Numbered from the stretch's first letter, positions 4,921-26,754 are shown. The stretch: 64,000 nt of DNA from Bacillota bacterium (GCA_012518435.1 JAAYSG010000037.1:14895-78894); one strand, 5' to 3'. Made by a program: numbers and translations. The notes: a model not told the origin generated them from the letters alone.

Positions 4921-6252
4921 TTATGACAGAAGAAAAACCCCGGCACCGGCCAGGGCATCAATTTCCAATTCGTGCAACATCCATTCGGCAAATACGCCAT
5001 AACCACGGGTGGGATCATTTACAAAGACATGGGTGACAATTCCAATCAATTTCCCCCCCTTGATAATGGGGCTACCGCTCATTCCCTGGATAATTCCCCC
5101 CGTTTCCTTTAATAGTTGGGGATCCGTAACCCTGATGACCATACCCTTATCACTGGGGGTATTTTGATTAAAGATCCTTTCCACTTCCACTTCATAGCAG
5201 CCAATTTGATCCGCCGACAATACCGTCATTATTTCTGCCGACCCCGTGGTCACCTGAGAAGACAGGGCTATGGGAATTCCCTGGGGATAAAAGGGATTAT
5301 GAATTTGCTCGTGGATGGTGCCGAAAATCCCAAATTGGGTGTTTTTTTCTATGTCACCCAGCAGATGGGCATCCTCCTTAAACACTCCCACCTTTTCCCC
5401 CGGCTGCCCCTTGGACCCTCGGTTGATGCCGGTAACAAAGGCCTTGACCACCGATCCTTCCGCTACATTGAGGGGTTGATTTGTATCCGCATCGGTGATG
5501 ACATGGCCCAGGGCTCCATAGCGGCCCGTTTCCCGGTGATAAAATGAAAGGGTCCCCACCCCATTGGCCCCATCCCGCACATAGAGGCCAATGCGGTATC
5601 TTTTTGTTTCCCGACAAAGAATGGGCTTAATTTCGGAAAATAAGAAGGAGTCCTTCCTTTTGTATTCAATTTGTAGGGTTTGATCCCGCTGACCATATTC
5701 GTGCACCAATTCGGCCAAGTGCATCACACCCTGCACCCGCCTTCCATTCACCTTGAGGATGGTATCACCAACCCGTATGCCGGCCTCCCGGGCCGGATTT
5801 ATGGTCCTGCTGCCCCCTTTGCCAATGCCCGCCTCTCCCACAACTATTACCCCATGAGAAAGGAGGAGTACACCGATGGAATGGCCTCCAGGAATGACTT
5901 CCACCGGCGGCAGCACATTCACCGTCATTCTACGGACGGGTACACCGAACAAAAGTAATTCTACTTCCGCCTCCCCCCTCTGGAGCGGCTCCACCTTAAG
6001 GGGTACTCCCAAATTGACCTTGGCCGCCTGGGGGGAAAGGGGTAACCCGTTTAAATTGACAACACCCGTGCGATTGGAGCGGAGGTAAACGTTGACGGGA
6101 AAACCAAAGTAAAGATTTTGTGCTTGGCCCTCCAAAAATTGTAGCTGCTGGGGAAAGGTAACTATGTTTTTAAACTGGGGGGTAAAGGAAACTGCAATAA
6201 TTACCAGTGCAAGGAAAACACCGAAGAGTTTGCGGCGGTTTTCCCTAGGCAA
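4921..6252 (-). CDS. spoIVB: SpoIVB signalling serine peptidase (S55)
   Basis: N-terminal transmembrane helix, a PDZ domain and an S55 peptidase domain. It sits next to spo0A and recN, as in Bacillus. Confidence 0.85.
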
Positions 6253-9826: not shown

Positions 9827-10639
9827 TCATTTGACCTCCTGCCAAGCCAAAGCCACAGTATTTGCAATGATTTCCGCCCAGGAACCCCCCAGGTCCGCTG
9901 CGCCTTTTCTACCGTAAAGGAAATACTCCCTATTGCCCTTAGCACCACTGAGGGGGGAAAAGGTCAGACCCAGTATTCCAAATCCCAAGCGCCGGGTTAC
10001 TAAAATTACATCATGCAGTACTTCCCGGTGAACAGCTGGATCCCGAACAACGCCCCCCCGGCCTACTTTTTCCGGGCCGGCCTCAAACTGAGGCTTTATT
10101 AGGGCCACCACTTCACCATGGGGAAGGAGGATTTCCTCCACTGCAGGCAGCACCTTTTCCAGGGAAATAAAGGAGACATCTATGGTGGCCAAATCCACCC
10201 TTTCCGCAAGTTGGTCCGGCTTAAGATGGCGGATGTTGGTCCGCTCCATTACCACAACCCGGGGATCCTGCCGCAGGCACCAGGCCAACTGACCCCAACC
10301 CACATCCACAGCATAAACCCTCCGGGCACCATGTTTTAAGGCACAATGGGTAAAACCACCGGTTGAGGCCCCCACGTCCAGGACAACTTTCTCCCCCAGC
10401 TTAATTTCGAAAACCCGCAGGGCCTTCTCCAGCTTGAGCCCTCCCCTACTCACATAGGGATTATCGTCGGCCAAAATTCGCAGAGTGGCTTCCCGCCTAA
10501 CCCGAGTGCCAGCCTTGTCAATTTTTTCCCCATCAACCAAAATTAAACCCGCCATGATGGCCCCTTGGGCCCGTTGCCGGCTTTCATAAAACCCCCGCTC
10601 TACCAAAAGTATATCCAGCCGTTCCTTCTCCTTAGACAT
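9827..10639 (-). CDS. tlyA: TlyA family rRNA 2'-O-methyltransferase (hemolysin A-like)
   Basis: N-terminal S4 domain and an FtsJ-like methyltransferase domain ([12 protein letters not shown]). Its position between dxs and argR is conserved. Confidence 0.8.
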
Positions 10640-12563
10640 GACCCATCCCTTGTCCCGATAAATTTCGCAGCCGCTGTGGATGTTTCAACAATCTCCCAAC
10701 GGCCGCCACAATCCCGGCCGCTGTCAATTCATTTTCCGCCAAGAGGTAATCCCGTGAACCCTGCTCAACAAATTCATCCCCATAGCCCAAGATCTCCACC
10801 CGGCAGTCCTGGACACCCTCCTTGGCCAACAATTCCAACACTGCACTGCCAAAACCGCCCTGACGGGCATGGTCTTCCACAGTTACTATTTTCTTAACAC
10901 TGCGGGCCTGCTGCAAAATAAGCTCCTTGTCCAGGGGCTTGACAAAGCGGGCGTTTATAACCGCCACAGCAAGGCCAGTTGTGGCCAACATTTCCGCCGC
11001 CTCCAAGGCCCGACCCACCATGGGCCCCAGGGCCAAAATAGCAGCGTCCGAACCCTCCCTGAGGAGCTCTGCCCTGCCAATGGGCAAGGGAAGGGGGTTT
11101 TTCACAAGTTGGGCCCCCTCCCCCGCACCCCGGGGATAGCGAAGGGCAATGGGTCCGGAAGAATGGCGAAGGGCAGTCACCAGCATCCGCTGGAGCTCCG
11201 CCTCATCCTTGGGTGCCATCAAGGTCATACCCGGTATGTGGCGAAGAAAGGCCAGGTCAAAGACCCCATGGTGGGTGGGTCCATCCTCCCCCACAACCCC
11301 ACCCCGGTCAATGGCAAAAATAACGGGCAAACCCGGAAGGCAGACATCGTGGACAATCTGATCATAGGCCCGCTGCAAAAACGTTGAATAGATGGCAACA
11401 ACGGGTCGTAAACCCGCCGTCGCCAGCCCCGCAGCCAGGGAAACAGCATGCTGTTCCGCAATGCCCACATCGAAAAAACGCCGGGGAAACCTTTTCGCCA
11501 GCATATCCAATCCCGTCCCGGCGGGCATGGCCGCCGTAATACCAACAATATCCGCCTCTTCCTCCGATAATTGCACCAAGGTCTCGCCGAAGACCTGGGT
11601 ATAGGAAGGTGGAACACCCGCCTTCTTTTTTGCCCTTCCCGATACGGGGTCAAAGGCCCCAATACCATGAAAACGATGGGGCTGGTCCTCCGCCGGGGGG
11701 TATCCTTTGCCCTTCGTTGTCACAACATGAAGGAGCACCGGCCCTTTAACCTTACGGGCATTGACAAGGGCCCCCTTTAGTTGGGGAAGGTCATGCCCAT
11801 CTATGGGACCCAAGTATGTAAAACCCAACTCCTCAAAGAGGACACCCCTCACCAGCAAATATTTAAGGCTGTCCTTTAACCTTTCCACGGACTTGACAAC
11901 CTGCCCCCCAATGGCCGGTATTTTCCGCAATATAAATTCAATATCGGCCTTAATTTTTCCATAGGCGGGATCGGTACGCAACCGGCCCAAGTATGATGAC
12001 AAGGCCCCTACATTGGGGGCAATGGACATCTCATTATCATTTAATATCACAAGTAAATTTGTACCCAAATGGCCGGCATTGTTAAGTCCCTCCCAGGCCA
12101 TTCCCGCCGTCAAGGCCCCATCACCAATAACGGCACAGACACTATAGTCCTCACCCTTTAAATCCCGGGCCAGGGCTAGGCCCAAGGCAGAAGAAATAGA
12201 CGTACTGGTATGACCCGTCCCAATCACATCATGGGGGCTTTCCTCTGGTTTGGGAAAACCGCTGAGGCCACCGGCAGTGCGGATTGTCCGAAACTCCTTT
12301 CGCCGACCTGTCAGTAATTTATGGACATAGCTCTGGTGCCCCACATCCCAAACAATTTTGTCCCGGGGACTGCACAGTACACTATGAAGGGCCAGGGTTA
12401 ATTCAACCACACCCAAGTTGGGGGCCAGATGCCCCCCATTGCGGGATACAGTTTCCACTATTTCCTTCCTTATTTCCCCGGCCAGCTGGACTAATTCAGA
12501 ACAAGTAAGCCCCTGGAGATCCCTAGGACTGTTGATTCGTTCCAACCATTGTCCCAATTTCAT
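10632..12563 (-). CDS. dxs: 1-deoxy-D-xylulose-5-phosphate synthase
   Basis: 643 aa. TPP-binding motif ([18 protein letters not shown]), a transketolase-like fold and a conserved N-terminus. Confidence 0.95.
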
Positions 12564-12564
12564 T

Positions 12565-13179
12565 TCACCTCCGCCGCATCCTTCCCTTTTCCGCCAGAAT
12601 TTGTAAACCCAGCTTCAATTCAAGCCATGCCAAAAGGCAGCCAACCCGATGGGTTATTTCTTGGCAACGATGGAGGGCAAAATACTTGCCCGCAGCCTTT
12701 CCACCCACCGTAAAGGCAGCAACCAAGGCCACAATAAGAAGGGAAGCCACCGCCTGCTTGGCCACCAAACCCAAAAGAAAAAGATTAAAGACAATACTGG
12801 CAGCAGCCGCCCCACTCACCGTACCGCAAATGTCGCCCACCACATCGTTGCAAAAACTGCTAACCCGATCGGCATGGCGGATTAGGCGAATGGCCTGGAC
12901 TGAACCAAATACCTTTTTGGCCGCCATGGAATGAAAGGAGGATTCACCAGTGGCGGTAACGGCTATACCAATTATATCAAAAACTATCCCGGTAAATATA
13001 ATCAAGAACAAGATCGATACAGCGGCAACTAAACCAAATAGGGTTAGGATAGAATTAGCCATCAGTGTCAGCACTATTGACAAAATAAAGGTTACCAAGC
13101 CCATATAAAGGCCCTGACGCAGGGGACCTCTATCCTTATTTAGCCTATTTTTTCCCCCAGAAGCCAAATTCTCCCCCAC
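12565..13179 (-). CDS. oapA: Small four-transmembrane membrane protein, OapA-like (OLE-associated protein A)
   Basis: About 180-200 aa with four predicted transmembrane helices. It is directly upstream of dxs with a 1-nt gap and directly downstream of a long structured non-coding region and ispA, which is the arrangement of the described ole-oapA locus. Confidence 0.5.
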
Positions 13180-13199
13180 CCAATCTTAAATATAGAATA

Positions 13200-13900
13200 A
13201 TAAAAGGGAAAGCCTTCCCCCTTGAAGTATCTTTCCCCATTCAGAACCATGTATGTTTAAGGAGGACAGGTGCTAGCAAGCCGGGTAAACATTGCGGCTT
13301 AAGGTCTAGTAGGTTTTCCCAGCAATGCACCAGGATGTCGCCATCCGGGCGGTTTCCCTTCACCGCATTACTCCATGCCGTCACCGGGCATAGGACTAGA
13401 TTACCACTTAGTCCACACTGCAATCCCCGACCCGCCCCAATTCCAAATTGGGCAGTCTAGGAGCTTTCCTCGACAGCCAACCACCCTTTAGCCTCTTTTG
13501 CAATAGGAGTTTCACAGTCAAATCCCGAATTATCCGGGCCCAAGGGAAAATCCGGTTACCACCTGTATCCGCCCCTACCACTCAAGGCAGGCTACACTGT
13601 ACACAGCTTCGCACCGCATACAGGTTCACCCCAAGCCGTAGCCCTTCAATGGACCACATACTTGGGTCTCCACGGAAGCAGGGTCAGGATCCACATGCCA
13701 TTGTGGACTGCCCTTGCCCCCTTAACCCCCAGCACCAGCCCCCGACTGGGCGTCAGCGGCCAGCACCAGGGACTTCATCGATGTGCCCTTAACGGATTTT
13801 TAGCCCCGCCTTCAAGGGTGCTTGCACTGACTAGAATACTGCACCACCTGTCCATTTTGCAATTATCAAGCAGGGGAAATTATATCATATCTTCAACAAC
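13200..13900 (-). ncRNA. ole: Candidate OLE (ornate large extremophilic) RNA
   Basis: A roughly 750-nt region between ispA and oapA with no plausible ORF; the three ORFs in the track overlap and have odd composition. It contains many GC-rich imperfect hairpins and sits in the diagnostic ispA-ole-oapA-dxs-tlyA context. Boundaries are approximate. Confidence 0.5.
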
Positions 13901-13928
13901 GGTGCAACCCACACAAATTCCCATGCTG

Positions 13929-14837
13929 TCAATTATCCCTCTCCAAGACATAGTCGATGAGCTGTCGTAGGGGTTGAGCCGAAGGACCAAAGCGTTTTAG
14001 GGCCTCAAGTGCCTTGTCCCTTCCCTCCCGTGCCGCCCCCCTGGATTCATCGAGGCCAAATAGGGCGGGATAAGTTGCCTTACCCCTTTTGGCATCTGTG
14101 CCTACGGGCTTACCCATTCTTTCATCATCCCCGACTACATCAAGGATATCATCGGTGATTTGAAATACCAGGCCAAACTCTTCAGCATATCTAGTGAGGG
14201 CAGCCAAATCGTCGGGTCCAGCGCCGGAGAGAAGGGCCCCCGTACGCACGGAAACCCGGAGCAAGGCCCCTGTTTTACTGCGATGGATGTAGCGCAGGGT
14301 AGCGGCATCAATGTTTTTTCCCTCGGAAATAATATCCACCGTCTGCCCCCCCACCATTCCCCCGGGGCCAGCCGCCGCAGCTACCTCCCCTATAACCTGG
14401 CGCAATAGGGCATCACGGTTAGGGGGAAGATCGCAGTGGGCCAAAATCTCAAAAGCCTTGGTCAATAAGGCGTCACCGGCCAGGATGGCCACGGCCTCGC
14501 CATAAACCTTATGATTGGCCAGCCGCCCCCGGCGAAAATCGTCATCATCCATGGCCGGTAAATCATCATGGATAAGGGAATAGGTGTGGATAAGTTCAAT
14601 GGCACAGGCCGCTTCCAAAACATCCTCATCCCTTCCCCCCACCGTCTCCGCAGCCGCCAGGACCAAAATCGGCCGCAGCCTCTTCCCCCCAGCAAAGATA
14701 CTATAGCCCATGGCCTCATGTAATTGGGGGGGGACATCCTCGGCCGGCGCAAGCAGGTTTTTTAAGGTCTCGTCTATCTTCTTCGCCTTTTCCCTTATAT
14801 ATTGCCCCAATCCCATTATCCTTCCTCCCCCTCCCAA
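13929..14837 (-). CDS. ispA: Farnesyl diphosphate synthase (geranyltranstransferase)
   Basis: Two aspartate-rich motifs (LIHDDLPAMDDDD and FQITDDILD). Confidence 0.9.
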   Translation of the reverse strand: MGGGGRIMGLGQYIREKAKKIDETLKNLLAPAEDVPPQLHEAMGYSIFAGGKRLRPILVLAAAETVGGRDEDVLEAACAIELIHTYSLIHDDLPAMDDDDFRRGRLANHKVYGEAVAILAGDALLTKAFEILAHCDLPPNRDALLRQVIGEVAAAAGPGGMVGGQTVDIISEGKNIDAATLRYIHRSKTGALLRVSVRTGALLSGAGPDDLAALTRYAEEFGLVFQITDDILDVVGDDERMGKPVGTDAKRGKATYPALFGLDESRGAAREGRDKALEALKRFGPSAQPLRQLIDYVLERDN

Positions 14838-22081: not shown

Positions 22082-22600
22082 TTAATAAAAGGTCAAAATC
22101 AACATTACCCCCAGGAGAAACCCCAGATAACGCCATAACCTCTCATTGGGGCCACTCCTCTCCCTCTCCCTCATTTCTGCCTCCTTAAGCTGTTGGCAGG
22201 TGAGGAGAAGGTGTTTTACCTGATCCTCCCTATCTGAACAACCCAATATCCCCCCCAGGGGCAGGAGGAGTTCCAATTCCCTGGGTCCCAAAACGCTATA
22301 CCTACCCAAATCCTTCAACCCCCGCTCCCAGGCCTCCCGGAAACTCAAAGACTGGGAAAGAAGGAGCTGGTCCCGGACCAGAAGAAAAAATGCTGCAAGT
22401 TGAGGATCTGTTAACGCCGCTACTTTTTTCAAAGCAGCTAACAGGGGAGTAACTCCATAGTTTATTTCGGTCTGTAAAAACTGCAGTGCCGTTTGCAAGG
22501 AGCGAAGCAGGCGGGGGCGTTGGGCATAACCGCGGGCAATATCATTTCCCAGTAGCCCACAGACAACAATCACCAGAATTGCCCCGGTAAATTTTAGCAT
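22082..22600 (-). CDS. spoIIIAB: Stage III sporulation protein AB
   Basis: 172 aa with a GspF-like fold, at the correct operon position. Confidence 0.75.
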   Translation of the reverse strand: MLKFTGAILVIVVCGLLGNDIARGYAQRPRLLRSLQTALQFLQTEINYGVTPLLAALKKVAALTDPQLAAFFLLVRDQLLLSQSLSFREAWERGLKDLGRYSVLGPRELELLLPLGGILGCSDREDQVKHLLLTCQQLKEAEMRERERSGPNERLWRYLGFLLGVMLILTFY

Positions 22601-22623
22601 TGGATCGTCCCCCTTCCCTTGGA

Positions 22624-23643
22624 TCAGCGCAGCGGATTTGCCAACAAGGAGGTGTTTGTTTCACCATCATACACCGCCTCCAGAGTACCCACACCCAGGG
22701 AAAAACCAAGAAATAGTATGCGTTGGAAAATCCCTCCGGCCAAGATATGGGCCAGGCTTGGGCGTCTTCTAAGGCTGTCCAGGCTATGTCCATGGGCCGT
22801 TGCCAATACCTTCACCCCCGCATGCAGGGCTTCGCCAATGGCCTCAGCATCCTCCCCATGCCCCAGTTCATCGGTGGCAATAACCTGGGGTGACATGGAT
22901 CGGACCAACATCATCATCCCTTCCGCCTTGGGACAGCCATCCAAAATGTCGGTCCGGGGCCCCAAATCCGCCTGGGGCACACCGGCACTACAGGCAGCAA
23001 TTTCCGAGCGTTCGTCCACTACCCCCACCTTCAAACCGGAAAAACCCAAGGAGGGTATCCCCCAACTTATCTGCCGGATGAGATCCCGCAAAAGAGTTGT
23101 CTTTCCCCCCAGGGGGGGTGATACGATGAGGGAATGGAATATGGTATTTCTTTTTTTATCAAGAAGGTAGGGGATTGCCTTGTCGCCCACACCGGGTAAC
23201 TCCCTGGCTAGGCGTATATTCATACCGGTAACATGCTTTAACAGCCTTACCCGCCCCTTTTCCAGAACCACCCTCCCGGTGAGCCCCACCCGGTGTCCAC
23301 CCTCCAGGGTTAAAAAACCTTGGCGCAGTTCCTCGGCAAAACTGTAAATGGAACAGCCACTCATGAGTTCTAAGGTCCTTGTCATGTCATCCCCCGTTAC
23401 AATATAGGCCCCAGGGGCTGAGGAAGCCATCCCCCCCTGGGGGCCAAGGAAACAATCCCCTTGGGCCAATACCAGCATAAGGGGTCTATTTTGCCGCAGG
23501 CGAATTTCCTCCACCTTTGCCCAAGTATCCCGGGGAATCTTCTTTAGGATATTACGGATCGGCACCGCCAAGGTGACCAAGATTTGCTCCAGATCCAAAA
23601 CCTTCCCCCTAACCCCCCCGTCCAGCAGCGCCAGAGCAGACAC
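22624..23643 (-). CDS. spoIIIAA: Stage III sporulation protein AA (secretion-type ATPase)
   Basis: Walker A motif PPLGGKTTLLRDL. First gene of the operon. Confidence 0.85.
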   Translation of the reverse strand: MSALALLDGGVRGKVLDLEQILVTLAVPIRNILKKIPRDTWAKVEEIRLRQNRPLMLVLAQGDCFLGPQGGMASSAPGAYIVTGDDMTRTLELMSGCSIYSFAEELRQGFLTLEGGHRVGLTGRVVLEKGRVRLLKHVTGMNIRLARELPGVGDKAIPYLLDKKRNTIFHSLIVSPPLGGKTTLLRDLIRQISWGIPSLGFSGLKVGVVDERSEIAACSAGVPQADLGPRTDILDGCPKAEGMMMLVRSMSPQVIATDELGHGEDAEAIGEALHAGVKVLATAHGHSLDSLRRRPSLAHILAGGIFQRILFLGFSLGVGTLEAVYDGETNTSLLANPLR

Positions 23644-23703
23644 AAAAACCCCCCCTTCCCTTCTATAGATATTATCCTCCTGGCAAAATTATGAAAATAA
23701 AAT

Positions 23704-23733
23704 AAAAAAACTGTCCCCCATTTGTGGACAGCC
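23704..23733 (-). terminator. Rho-independent terminator downstream of the dam-like gene
   Basis: On the minus strand, GGCUGUCC-ACAAAUGGG-GGACAG is followed by UUUUUUU. Confidence 0.5.
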
Positions 23734-23771
23734 ATCTACGACGAAACTCAAGGATAGAACCCCATTTTATG

Positions 23772-24692
23772 TTAATAATTCCTGATGATTAATTCCGTAA
23801 TTTCACCCCTTTTCTTTCCATGGCAGTTTATATTTCGCTTGGCAAAAACCCGCTCCATGCGAAAACCCCGATATAAATGGTCGAAAAAATCATCCCGGGG
23901 ATCCCTTGCCACCGGATCAGAGTTGCTAAGAAGTAAAAATGCATTCCTTTGGTCCAACTTTCGGAAATACTTGGCCAGGCGGATCTGGTCTTCATCGGTA
24001 AAATCCCCCCCGGTATAACTTGTAAACCTTGCCGTCCTTGTCAATGGTCTATAGGGCGGATCGAAATAGACCAGACTGCCCGCCTGGACATAGGCTTCAG
24101 AGGAGAGGAAATCTGCACAGAGCAGATTTACCCCCGCCAGTGCTTTACTCACCTCCCTGATGTTGGCTGCAGCACAAATGGCAGGTTTTTTGTAACGCCC
24201 GTGGGGGACATTAAATTCACCTCTTTTATTCTGCCTAAATAAACCATTGAAGCAAGTCTTGTTTAAAAATATTAACTGACTGGCCCGCCGGCTCCAGTCT
24301 TTTCCGTAAGACCCATAATCAAAGGTCAACCTTTGTCGGTTATATTGTTGCCTAATTTGATAGTATAGTTCCCTTCTACCAGAAGTATCCAAGCATAAAT
24401 ACTCTTCCTCCAGCCGGTCTAAATGAGAAATTAAGGCCTCCGGTTCCCGTTGCACCACCTTGTAAGCCAGCATCAGTTCCTTGTTAATATCCATTAAATA
24501 CACATTTTCCAGTGCAAACATTTCTTGAAGGTAAAAGAAGAAGGCCCCTCCCCCCAAAAAAGGTTCCACATAGGTGCTAATGGTTTTTGATTCCTTTATT
24601 TGCGCCGGCAATCTTCGGGATAACTCCGCCAATAACTGTGTTTTGCCCCCCGCCCATTTTAAGAAGGGTTTTGCCGAAAATCCCCTGCTCAC
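23772..24692 (-). CDS. dam: Dam-family DNA N6-adenine methyltransferase (orphan, no adjacent restriction endonuclease)
   Basis: N-terminal KPFLKWAGGK motif and a catalytic DPPY motif. At 306 aa it is the typical size of Dam/DpnM/MboIA-type methyltransferases. No cognate endonuclease ORF lies nearby. Confidence 0.85.
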   Translation of the reverse strand: MSRGFSAKPFLKWAGGKTQLLAELSRRLPAQIKESKTISTYVEPFLGGGAFFFYLQEMFALENVYLMDINKELMLAYKVVQREPEALISHLDRLEEEYLCLDTSGRRELYYQIRQQYNRQRLTFDYGSYGKDWSRRASQLIFLNKTCFNGLFRQNKRGEFNVPHGRYKKPAICAAANIREVSKALAGVNLLCADFLSSEAYVQAGSLVYFDPPYRPLTRTARFTSYTGGDFTDEDQIRLAKYFRKLDQRNAFLLLSNSDPVARDPRDDFFDHLYRGFRMERVFAKRNINCHGKKRGEITELIIRNY

Positions 24693-24699
24693 TGGTGTT

Positions 24700-25532
24700 C
24701 ACCCCCTCCCAATATTATCCACTGGCACTGCTCCTTGTCAAATTTCTTCGCAGCGGGCCGCCTTGGGGTACACCTTCTGGGCTGTCTTCAAATATTCCCT
24801 CCACCATAACTCCTGCTTGTTTGCCAGGTCCATGTCTACCACGAAGCGATATCCTTCTGTGATGTCGGCCCGGGCCTTTTGTAGCGCCCCGTGGGCGCTC
24901 CTTCTTGGTCGGAAGCCAAAGCTGTTGTTTGAAAACTGTTCTTCAAAGAAGGGGACAGGACTTGGCATATGGCTTTTCCCGGTGTTCGCGAAGGTATGGA
25001 AGAAGTCCTTCAACTTTCATGCCGTCGATGCCACCGGCACCCTTGTTCTTCTTTACCCGCTTGTAGGCACGGTTTAGATTGTCTCGGGTTAATATTTGCT
25101 CCAGCAGTCCTACGGTCTGTTTGGTGGTGTTGGTGATGTCGGTTTTGGTCATCTTGGGTGGCGCGCACACTACTGCATATTCTTTCCGTTCCGCGGATAC
25201 CTTTTGCAGATAGTCTTCATATCGAAGTTGTCCGTGTTTTACTAGGCCACTTGCAGTGACTGTCATTGACCCTCACCCCCGATGGTTCGGCCCTTCCGCT
25301 CTGCCACATTTACTGCGGGCAATTCCGTGTAGTTATTGGGCTTTGACTTGTTAAGCAGTCTTACCCTTGCTTACAGCCTTATGTGGTTTCTATTCGTCAG
25401 ACCGGGGGTTTGCCTACACCTTCCTTCAGATTCCACCTCGCGATGGATACCCTTGGTGTTCGGCTATTCCCTTCCCACTACCGGGCGGGTTCGGGACTTG
25501 CACCCTTTAGATTGCATCCATGCCGGGCGCAC
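24700..25532 (-). mobile_element. Degenerate bacterial class C-like group II intron (5' portion only)
   Basis: The minus strand begins with GUGCGCC immediately after terminator hairpin + UUUUUUAU, which is the characteristic class C insertion site. About 380 nt of ribozyme domains precede the RT start. The 3' part of the RT and ribozyme domains V/VI are absent. Confidence 0.6.
24738..25266 (-). pseudogene. Truncated, frameshifted group II intron reverse transcriptase/maturase
   Basis: Two overlapping frames encode LLEQILTRDNLNRAYKRVKKNKGAGGIDGM (RT domain 0/1) and FGFRPRRSAHGALQKARADITEGYRFVVDMDL (RT domain 2). Only about 170 aa of the expected more than 400 aa are present. Confidence 0.7.
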
Positions 25533-25570
25533 ATAAAAAAGGGCGGCTCCTGGCCGCCCCACTTAATTGC
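25533..25570 (-). terminator. Rho-independent terminator of the zinc-ribbon gene (and group II intron target site)
   Basis: On the minus strand, GGGGCGGCCAGGAGCCGCCC is followed by UUUUUUAU. Confidence 0.65.
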
Positions 25571-25591
25571 CTCACAAATTGAAGGGATATT

Positions 25592-26120
25592 TTAAAAATC
25601 TATTTCAGCATCCCCAACTGCCTCATCCTTGGCTTCAAATTCTTCTAATTCTGCATCGTCGTCTTCATCATCATCCCCATCTTCATAGTCATCTTCATAA
25701 TCATAGTCATAGTCTTCATAGTCAAAATCGTCATCTTCGGTGCTAAAGACAACAGCGCCACAATTGGGACAGGTTATTTCAATTATTGTCTCTTCATCTT
25801 CGTCAAGGGCCCCCTCCTCAAAGAAGACCGTTTCCCCACATTCAGGACATTCAACCTCGATGTACTCCCCATCCTCATGGCCAATGCCCTCGATATCGTC
25901 GTAATAGTCGTCCTCCAGTTCTCCCAGGCTTTCATCAACGGCGCCTACATACTCCTCCAGATCCTGGTAGTCACCGGCTATTTCTTCCATCTCAGCGGTT
26001 ATTTCAGCCAAAACTTCCAGTATTCCCCCCAAAATCTTCCCTTCCCCAGTATCCTGTTTGAGGTCCAGGCCTTCAGCCAACCCCTGTAAGTAGGCAATCC
26101 TTTCCATGAGCTCCCGCATG
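25592..26120 (-). CDS. Acidic zinc-ribbon protein of unknown function
   Basis: Two CxxC pairs (CPECG and CPNCG) and an extremely acidic Asp/Glu/Tyr-rich C-terminus (DDDFDYEDYDYDYEDDYEDGDDDEDDD). The probable start is ATG at 26120, which has a strong ribosome-binding site (GGAAGGGAGGAG); the ORF-track start at 26149 overlaps that site. Confidence 0.5.
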
Positions 26121-26196
26121 TGACACTCCTCCCTTCCTTGCTTTACCAATTTGATAGTTATAGTATAACACAGGAATGCAAAAATAACACCTGGAG

Positions 26197-26754
26197 TTAA
26201 ACCCGTTCCATGTATTCTCTAGAGCGGGTATCAACCCTAATTACATCACCTTCCTCAATAAAAAGGGGAACCAACACCTCGGCCCCGGTTTCCAATACGG
26301 CCCTTTTAGTCGCTCCAGATACTGTGTCTCCCCTAATTCCCGGTTCAGTCTCCGTAATGGCCAATTCAACAAAATTCGGCAGTTCTATACCAATGACATC
26401 CCCCTTGTATTCCATAACATAGATGAGCATATTCTCCTTGAGAAGGCTAATGGTATCTCCCAATTCTTCCTGGGGAAAATTAATCTGTTCAAAGCTTTCA
26501 GTGTCCATAAAGACCAAAAATTCCCCCGAACGATATAAGTATTGCATCTCCCTTCTTTCCACATGGGCCCGGCTAACCTTTTCCCCGGCCCGAAAGGTTT
26601 TGTCAATGGTCGCCTCCGTGCGAATATTCTTCAGTTTGCTGCGAACAAAGGCGGCACCCTTGCCCGGCTTAACATGCTGAAAATATACTACCGTATATAC
26701 TTCCCCATCCAGCTCAATGGTCATCCCAGTCTTAAAATCATTGGTTGAAATCAC
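26197..26754 (-). CDS. efp: Translation elongation factor P
   Basis: 185 aa. The [15 protein letters not shown] loop carries the conserved modified lysine. Confidence 0.9.

Follow-up and report, generated by a model that had tools for sequence, protein, structure and literature searches.

Group II introns of class C (IIC) are the closest described systems to the element analysed here. They are distinguished by small size, by a distal stem of domain V that is shortened by 2 bp and by a CGC triad which replaces AGC there (PMC1702495). Further hallmarks are an 11-nt epsilon-prime bulge with a conserved AGGAA and an EBS1-IBS1 pairing of 3-4 bp, with no EBS2 (PMC1702495). Introns of this class have no En domain (En-minus), and their insertion sites are intrinsic terminators or attC sites (PMC4424553), the distance from stem-loop to insertion point ranging from 3 to 11 nt (PMC1702495). 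In bacteria, truncation of group II intron copies is the rule and not the exception (PMC4424553).

We examine a 64,000-nt stretch of DNA from a Bacillota bacterium, referred to below as the window. An earlier note, made from the sequence alone, had read positions 24700 to 25570 as a decayed class C intron placed directly after a Rho-independent terminator. With high confidence, we read the locus as a class C intron which inserted past the terminator of a Zn-ribbon gene, was killed by deletions and is now an inert remnant. The following features frame the locus:

25592 to 26149, minus strand: upstream host gene, coding for an acidic Zn-ribbon protein whose N-terminal domain is of the CD1247 type (NCBIfam NF045650, E 1.2e-21); not intron
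25533 to 25560, minus strand: intrinsic terminator, with hairpin 25560-25541 GGGGCGGCCAGGAGCCGCCC (GGGGCGGC-CAGGA-GCCGCCC(C)) and T-tract 25540-25533 TTTTTTAT; the class C insertion target
24752 to 25532, minus strand: whole intron remnant, 781 nt of an original of about 1894 nt; four collinear blastn blocks with 92-98% identity to the intact relative L001
24714 to 24741, minus strand: predicted native promoter of Dam, with TTGACA and GATAAT 16 nt apart and agreement with the consensus at 11 of 12 positions; not intron-derived
23772 to 24692, minus strand: Dam-family N6-adenine DNA methyltransferase (Pfam PF02086, 9.4e-56; TIGR00571, 2.2e-82), the downstream neighbour of the remnant

The insertion point is sharply delimited. 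The terminator hairpin has 8 pairs, 7 of them G-C, and a loop of 5; it is present in both the MFE and the centroid structures of the RNA fold, and the site 25560-25533 (minus strand) ranks first among the terminator-like sites of 23400-26400. The earlier note had described a clean terminator followed by GUGCGCC on the minus strand, and this arrangement holds: the intron 5′ end GTGCGCC directly abuts the T-tract at 25532 (minus strand), where GTGCGCCCGGCATGG begins, and the spacing from the hairpin to the start of the remnant is 8 nt. The GUGYG-type 5′ boundary, GTGCG at 25532-25528 (minus strand), occurs only once in the window and lines up with the point where 14 intact relatives begin.

Relatives were collected by a scan with the composite RT peptide, one genome being taken per species, which gave 70 loci with L001 as the best. 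Among their distinct 5′ junctions, 35 of 43 (81%) show a hairpin and a T-run upstream, against 2.7% of 1000 control positions, a junction being counted when the upstream 50 nt fold at -12 kcal/mol or below and the last 14 nt hold at least 6 T. Insertion just 3′ of a terminator, which the earlier note had named as a class C hallmark, is thus shared by the window copy and by most of its relatives. Furthermore, orthologous hairpins without an intron end the Zn-ribbon gene in the relatives L081 and L083 (GGGCGGCC...GGCCGCCC, then TTAATCAT or TTATCTAT). In effect, the two unoccupied terminators are empty sites.

For the origin of the remnant, we propose that an approximately 1.9-kb IIC retroelement with an En-less RT/maturase retrotransposed into the DNA behind the CD1247-like gene, 8 nt past its terminator hairpin and reading in the same direction as the gene. 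If the element followed the published behaviour of its family, the target would have been chosen through the terminator stem-loop and a 3-4-nt IBS1, and entry would have taken place by reverse-splicing into a DNA strand and subsequent copying from a replication-fork primer. GC skew of the plus strand is negative throughout, and the sense strand of the intron is the G-rich one. En-less introns have a known orientation bias, with which the G-rich sense strand here agrees weakly.

The ribozyme sequence establishes what the element is. The earlier note had proposed a scan with Rfam group II models and an alignment of the RT fragment to class C proteins, and both gave matches. In the first, RF02001 (group-II-D1D4-3) matches 25447-25284 (minus strand) over the full model 1-170 with 123.8 bits (E 5.5e-25, gathering score 32), although the last ~25 model positions run across a deletion and align poorly there. 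At curated thresholds, the whole 64-kb window contains only one further Rfam match, a distant OLE RNA. Within RF02001, the 11-nt single-stranded AUCUGAAGGAA at 25431-25421 (minus strand) falls on the 11 positions which the model leaves unpaired behind its first hairpin, and it is invariant in the alignment of relatives (alignment A1). The element is a group II intron: it has the 5′ end, the Rfam domain I match and near-identity (92-98% at the DNA level) to an intact intron, which bears out the identity that the earlier note had given.

The OLE RNA (RF01071) is full-length at 13254-13863 (minus strand) and scores 494 bits. It lies between an ispA-like gene (13929-14837) and a 204-aa oapA-like membrane ORF (12565-13179), which is followed by dxs (10632-12563), so that the neighbourhood covers 10632-14837. 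We take this RNA to be a member of the known OLE class, and the gene order presumably corresponds to the arrangement described for it.

In the protein comparison, a composite peptide of the RT pieces in the window matched only IIC RTs in the PDB, with E from 3e-30 to 3e-24. The best match is GsI-IIC at 2.8e-30; three chains from E. rectale / R. intestinalis come next, with E between 1e-25 and 3e-24, whereas LtrA (IIA) and the 6me0 maturase RT fall short of E 1e-3. We take the 6me0 protein to be T.el4h, of class IIB. It might be asked whether the RT-like segment belongs to another class of retroelement (a retron, a DGR, an Abi/defence RT or a group II-like RT) and lies beside GUGCG by chance, since Pfam, including RVT_1, returned no match with the two ORF fragments or with the composite of pieces. 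However, Pfam misses the sequence because the deletions split the RT domain and not for want of homology. At the DNA level, the remnant has 92-98% identity to an intron whose ribozyme is complete and whose protein scores 430 bits with TIGR04416 and far lower with retron and Drt models. Together with the RF02001 match and the IIC-only PDB matches, this identity led us to reject another retroelement class, to which we assign a negligible probability.

The class of the intron is best read from its intact relatives. These are 1893-1909 nt long, counted from GUGYG through the ...CGAU 3′ end, a length from which the original size of the window copy was estimated, and they carry RF02001, RF01998 and RF00029 in order over ~1.9 kb. 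The closest, L001, lies on contig DATERQ010000076.1 of the MAG SMAG_U9077 and contains RF02001, RF01998, a 432-469-aa ORF and RF00029 in this order. A 36-nt exact pattern common to the window and L001 had no match in the metagenome contigs scanned. The intron-encoded protein (IEP) of L001 has RVT_1 and GIIM as its only domains, and no nuclease (En, H-N-H) domain was found in it. In the PDB, it matches GsI-IIC RT over its full length (2e-124), then the 7uim group II intron RT/maturase chain (6e-121), LtrA (5e-44) and the 6me0 maturase RT (2e-38). The 7uim chain is, as we assume, the IIC enzyme of E. rectale.

Domain V of L001, CCGCCGUAU-ACC-GAAC-GGU-AC-GUACGGUGG, shows a CGC triad and a 3-bp distal stem, both of which are also found in L003 and L053. 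The triad is not universal in this group, because the domain V of L010 and L013 (about 5319-5355), GGAGCCGUAU, has AGC, though these two are otherwise IIC-like, with the 3-bp distal stem and the terminator insertion. As to size, the intact relatives with their ORF fall at the ~1.9 kb of the class, and the window copy is 781 nt long. Taken together, the RT pieces, the AUCUGAAGGAA motif, the IIC-type domain V and En-less protein of L001 and the position behind a terminator indicate class C, as the earlier note had held, an assignment made from features and matches.

Beyond its 5′ end, the window copy is heavily eroded. Compared with L001, it breaks down as follows:

25300 to 25532, minus strand: Segment A, the 5′ end GTGCGCC, undamaged, and the first part of ribozyme domain I (RF02001 match; alignment A1); 25447-25300 = L001 1-148, 98.0% identity by blastn
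25299 to 25300, minus strand: junction of deletion 1, 128 nt gone (L001 149-276), which removes most of RF01998 (D1D4-1)
24976 to 25299, minus strand: Segment B, pre-ORF sequence and the N-terminal ~60 aa of the IEP, MTKTD...LLEQILTRDNLNRAYKRVKKNKGAGGIDGM...REHREK (blastn, translation, tblastn); 25299-24969 = L001 277-607, 91.8% identity by blastn
24969 to 24975, minus strand: junction of deletion 2, 127 nt gone (L001 601-727), with ~42 aa lost (LLQSLQDGKYRPKPVRRVEIPK...GIPTVVDRLIQQ)
24820 to 24968, minus strand: Segment C, AICQVLSP / PFFEEQFSNNSFGFRPRRSAHGALQKARADITEGYRFVVDMDLA, its frame shifted by a 1-nt deletion in a C-run; 24975-24820 = L001 728-884, 93.6% identity by blastn
about 24951-24954, minus strand: the 1-nt deletion, in a C5 run, from the gapped alignment
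24819 to 24820, minus strand: junction of deletion 3, 94 nt gone (L001 885-978), with ~31 aa lost
24752 to 24819, minus strand: Segment D, QAGVMVEGIFEDSPEGVPQGGPL, the final intron-derived stretch; = L001 979-1046, 95.6% identity by blastn
24746 to 24752, minus strand: 3′ truncation junction, the last ~763 nt gone (L001 1047-1809), including YADD, the maturase/X domain and domains V and VI

L001 belongs to another MAG and is closely related to the window copy, but it is not the true parent, and the positions and sizes of the junctions are therefore good to a few nt only; the limits of deletion 2 were set after allowing for a 7-nt overlap of the blocks at the second junction. The contig of L001 ends within the intron, so that its first 85 nt are missing, and the 5′ end of the window copy was compared with more distant relatives instead. 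The stretch which L001 lacks aligns collinearly in five other intact relatives, and over its first 233 nt the window copy is collinear with intact relatives, among them a Halalkalibacterium halodurans intron.

Altogether, 1113 of ~1894 nt, about 60% of the sequence, are gone from the window copy. The losses comprise the D1D4-1 ribozyme region, the YRPKPVRRVEIPK...GIPTVVDRLIQQ block of the RT, the YADD active site, the maturase domain and domains V and VI. The gaps are losses in the window copy and not gains in L001, because RF01998 is present in 16 of 18 scanned loci (at 219-286 in L001 and in 15 other relatives) and because the missing protein parts match conserved GsI-IIC RT residues, about 52-100 and 142-171. 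The description of a decayed copy without its 3′ half is upheld, with ~763 nt missing after L001 1046, and decay itself is real; the earlier account had nevertheless missed three internal deletions of ~100 nt, one of them in the ribozyme.

The absence of domain V/VI downstream, also claimed before, was confirmed in two ways. RF00029 has no match in the whole window at its gathering score and none in 22500-26300 at E<=10, and blastn finds nothing that corresponds to L001 1047-1809; catalytic domain V, the branch-point domain VI and the 3′ splice site are accordingly absent from the window copy. RF01998 likewise has no match in 22500-26300 at E<=10, where the other Rfam matches are to HIV_FS2 and snoRNA models only, at chance level (E>2). 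Blastn and tblastn with the intact L001 found neither a displaced 3′ half nor other intron pieces across the 64-kb window. With domains V/VI and most of the IEP absent, the window copy is a remnant and not a functional member of the group II introns.

Since decay has spared the 5′ end and the first 233 nt of domain I, which are well conserved, with 98% identity to L001, one could imagine that the remnant is one half, the 5′ one, of an intron that is split, splices in trans or still functions in some other way (ORF-less). We regard this as very improbable: a 128-nt hole lies in the ribozyme where relatives carry RF01998, D5/D6 are missing from the window, and the intergenic spacer past the terminator offers no exon to join. 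The density of SNPs, ~16-fold over the flanks (see below), also speaks against a functional intron.

The RT reading frame records the same damage. The RT-like peptides LLEQILTRDNLNRAYKRVKKNKGAGGIDGM and FGFRPRRSAHGALQKA...FVVDMDL, which the earlier note had picked out, are present on the minus strand in different frames. About 135 of the 432 aa of the IEP survive, spread over three frames, and the order of frames along the remnant (1 -> 0 -> 2 -> 1) agrees with the deletion sizes modulo 3. The changes of frame are thus real; they do not come from one simple frameshift, as had been supposed, but from the 127- and 94-nt deletions and the 1-nt deletion in the C-run. RT sequence is retained as well, yet not as contiguous domains 0-2: aligned to GsI-IIC RT, the pieces cover residues roughly 2-50, 103-141 and 172-195. 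By motif name, we take them to be RT0, the FGFRP...VVDMDL block and QAGVM...PQGGPL, and the deleted block with YRPKPVRRVEIPK...GIPTVVDRLIQQ presumably corresponds to RT1/RT2.

Public assemblies annotate a 107-aa ORF (24943-25266, minus strand) and a 76-aa ORF (24738-25013, minus strand) at this place (P0017, P0049). These are pseudogene pieces of the broken intron RT and not genes. A protein homologue search with the composite peptide returned only short proteins (<=233 aa), many of them frameshifted N-terminal fragments; it led to this locus in eight assemblies but not to the parent intron. Among the homologues P0071-P0113, many short N-terminal fragments leave the RT frame at or just past ...LRE(N/H)REE-LLQS..., near deletion 2 of the window copy. 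This loss of frame could reflect a decay hot spot or homopolymer sequencing error.

How the gaps arose may be considered in two ways. In the simplest history, the intron inserted in the lineage of the window and was later cut back by a deletion to the Dam promoter. The alignment shows three internal deletions (128, 127 and 94 nt), the 1-nt deletion in the C-run and one large deletion, which begins midway through the RT gene and ends a few bases short of the Dam -35 box; host DNA that lay in between may have gone with it. Alternatively, the internal gaps might have been made in one step at insertion, by jumping of the RT along its RNA template during cDNA synthesis, which would have installed a defective self-copy from the start. 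Template switching is a known property of group II intron RTs. The gaps are alike in size, two of them near-equal, in sequence that is 92-98% identical, and the retained ORF pieces contain no stop codons, which speaks for such an event. However, cDNA synthesis begins at the intron 3′ end, the part which is missing here, so that one or more deletions must have followed in any case, and the isolated loss of 1 nt also calls for a later event. The junctions show neither diagnostic extra nucleotides nor microhomology, and nothing separates template jumping from ordinary deletional decay.

Relative to L001, no exact microhomology was found at the deletion junctions, deletion 2 showing an imperfect 7-nt repeat (5/7); the comparison is a weak one, as L001 is 2-8% diverged from the true parent. 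The lack of clear junction microhomology against L001 means that no deletion mechanism is supported. On balance, we consider template jumping unlikely and retain ordinary deletional decay. Were template jumping true, which the data do not demand, the locus would be a natural case in which a group II intron inserted a cDNA copy of itself that already had internal deletions.

The 3′ break deserves separate attention. The earlier note had let the element reach to 24700, but it ends at about 24752-24746, and the 50 nt ahead of the Dam start codon are the native promoter and leader of Dam. On the intron side, the break falls at RT codon ~209; on the other, it lies 4-10 nt upstream of the Dam -35 box. 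From the last intron-derived base to the Dam start codon, there are about 50-60 nt of non-intron sequence, made up of the Dam promoter and leader.

Comparison with relatives places this region in an older context. In L079, L081 and L083, Dam lies downstream of efp and the Zn-ribbon gene, and in L081 and L083 the orthologue of the Zn-ribbon gene follows efp. The Dam proteins of the three loci share 70-73% aa identity with that of the window, and each gene is preceded by a TTGACA...GATAGTATT/GATAGCATT block, then by a Shine-Dalgarno sequence and the start codon. SpoIIIAA directly follows Dam in L079 and L083, whose contigs reach past Dam. L079, L081 and L083 carry no intron sequence. As the Dam start lies only ~60 nt past the last intron-derived base, it could be thought that Dam came with the 3′ half of the intron or took its place, as cargo or by a later insertion. 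Dam and its promoter occupy the same place in the three intron-free loci, however, and we give this view hardly any weight. Because synteny and promoter are kept in intron-free relatives, Dam is ancestral upstream of spoIIIAA and not intron cargo, and the cargo explanation was rejected on this ground. That the deletion halted at the Dam promoter probably reflects selection for Dam expression.

The interval between the Zn-ribbon terminator and the Dam promoter is a variable spot (24752-25592 in the window, 1790-4990 in L081, 2573-4990 in L083). It holds a histidine kinase, a response regulator and a 209-aa ORF in L081, a 199-aa ORF and an MGMT-like gene in L083, and the intron remnant alone in the window. 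Dam, whose homologues are named MjaIII-type, is preceded by a near-consensus promoter of its own and lacks a restriction enzyme gene alongside, and it lies directly upstream of the spoIIIA operon in the two relatives whose contigs extend to it. Possibly it is an orphan methylase with a link to sporulation genes.

Population data show how far the remnant has settled. A 941-nt region is common to eight independent metagenome assemblies, including some from biogas fermenters, with 99.1-99.9% identity, no indels and the same deletions. Because the eight assemblies agree without indels, the structure of the remnant is real and fixed. Repeated mobile elements are often mis-assembled in metagenomes, which might invite the view that the deletion pattern is an assembly artefact; the concordance of eight assemblies from different samples leads us to reject this, and we consider it next to impossible.

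The assemblies differ at 12 sites within the 781 nt of the remnant and at 9 sites within ~9200 nt of flanking genes (odds ratio 16, Fisher p 7e-9). This excess of SNPs, ~16-fold over the flanks, fits neutral decay with no purifying selection; it could partly stem from reads of paralogous introns mixed into the assemblies. The remnant cannot splice, encode an active protein or move. Placed behind a strong terminator and ahead of the Dam promoter, with neither a catalytic core nor an intact ORF, it is for these reasons presumably inert, and the sequence data suggest a neutrally drifting spacer from terminator to Dam promoter in an uncultured Bacillota population.

The remnant is real but ordinary genomic debris, and its importance beyond annotation is small. 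New here are the anatomy of decay, the near-identical intact relative, the empty orthologous sites and the conserved Dam promoter at the break. The locus offers a clean, dated example of class C targeting, with an occupied terminator here against orthologous empty terminators in relatives. It also illustrates how such elements are erased, the large deletion ending just short of the promoter of a conserved neighbour. Lastly, L001, apparently an intact close relative, could serve as a source of a IIC reverse transcriptase.

Among known systems, the L001 intron is nearest. It shares with the window copy 92-98% DNA identity over the four retained blocks, the ribozyme elements and the IEP. It differs in having RF01998, a 432-aa RT/maturase and D5/D6, complete downstream of the contig end, and in its genome and site. 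B.h.I1 of Bacillus (Halalkalibacterium) halodurans, the class C archetype (PMC1702495), resembles the window intron in lying a few nt after a terminator-type stem-loop and in its GUGYG 5′ end; with the family of the window intron it shares an RF02001-type domain I with the AGGAA bulge, a length of ~1.9 kb and an En-less IEP. B.h.I1 is nevertheless an active ribozyme and the window copy a wreck, and their sequence similarity is distant (composite IEP ~33% identical). L053, the intron of H. halodurans DSM 497, is presumably a copy of B.h.I1, and it aligns collinearly with the 5′ 233 nt of the window copy. At the protein level, GsI-IIC RT (6AR1) and the IIC RTs of Eubacterium rectale and Roseburia intestinalis (7UIM, 5HHJ, 5HHL) are the nearest in the PDB to both the L001 IEP and the window fragments. 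These are full-length active enzymes, whereas the window keeps three residue blocks in three frames. Finally, in comparison with truncated or inactivated bacterial group II copies in general, the window copy does not show one truncation but a 3′ loss combined with several internal deletions of ~100 nt.
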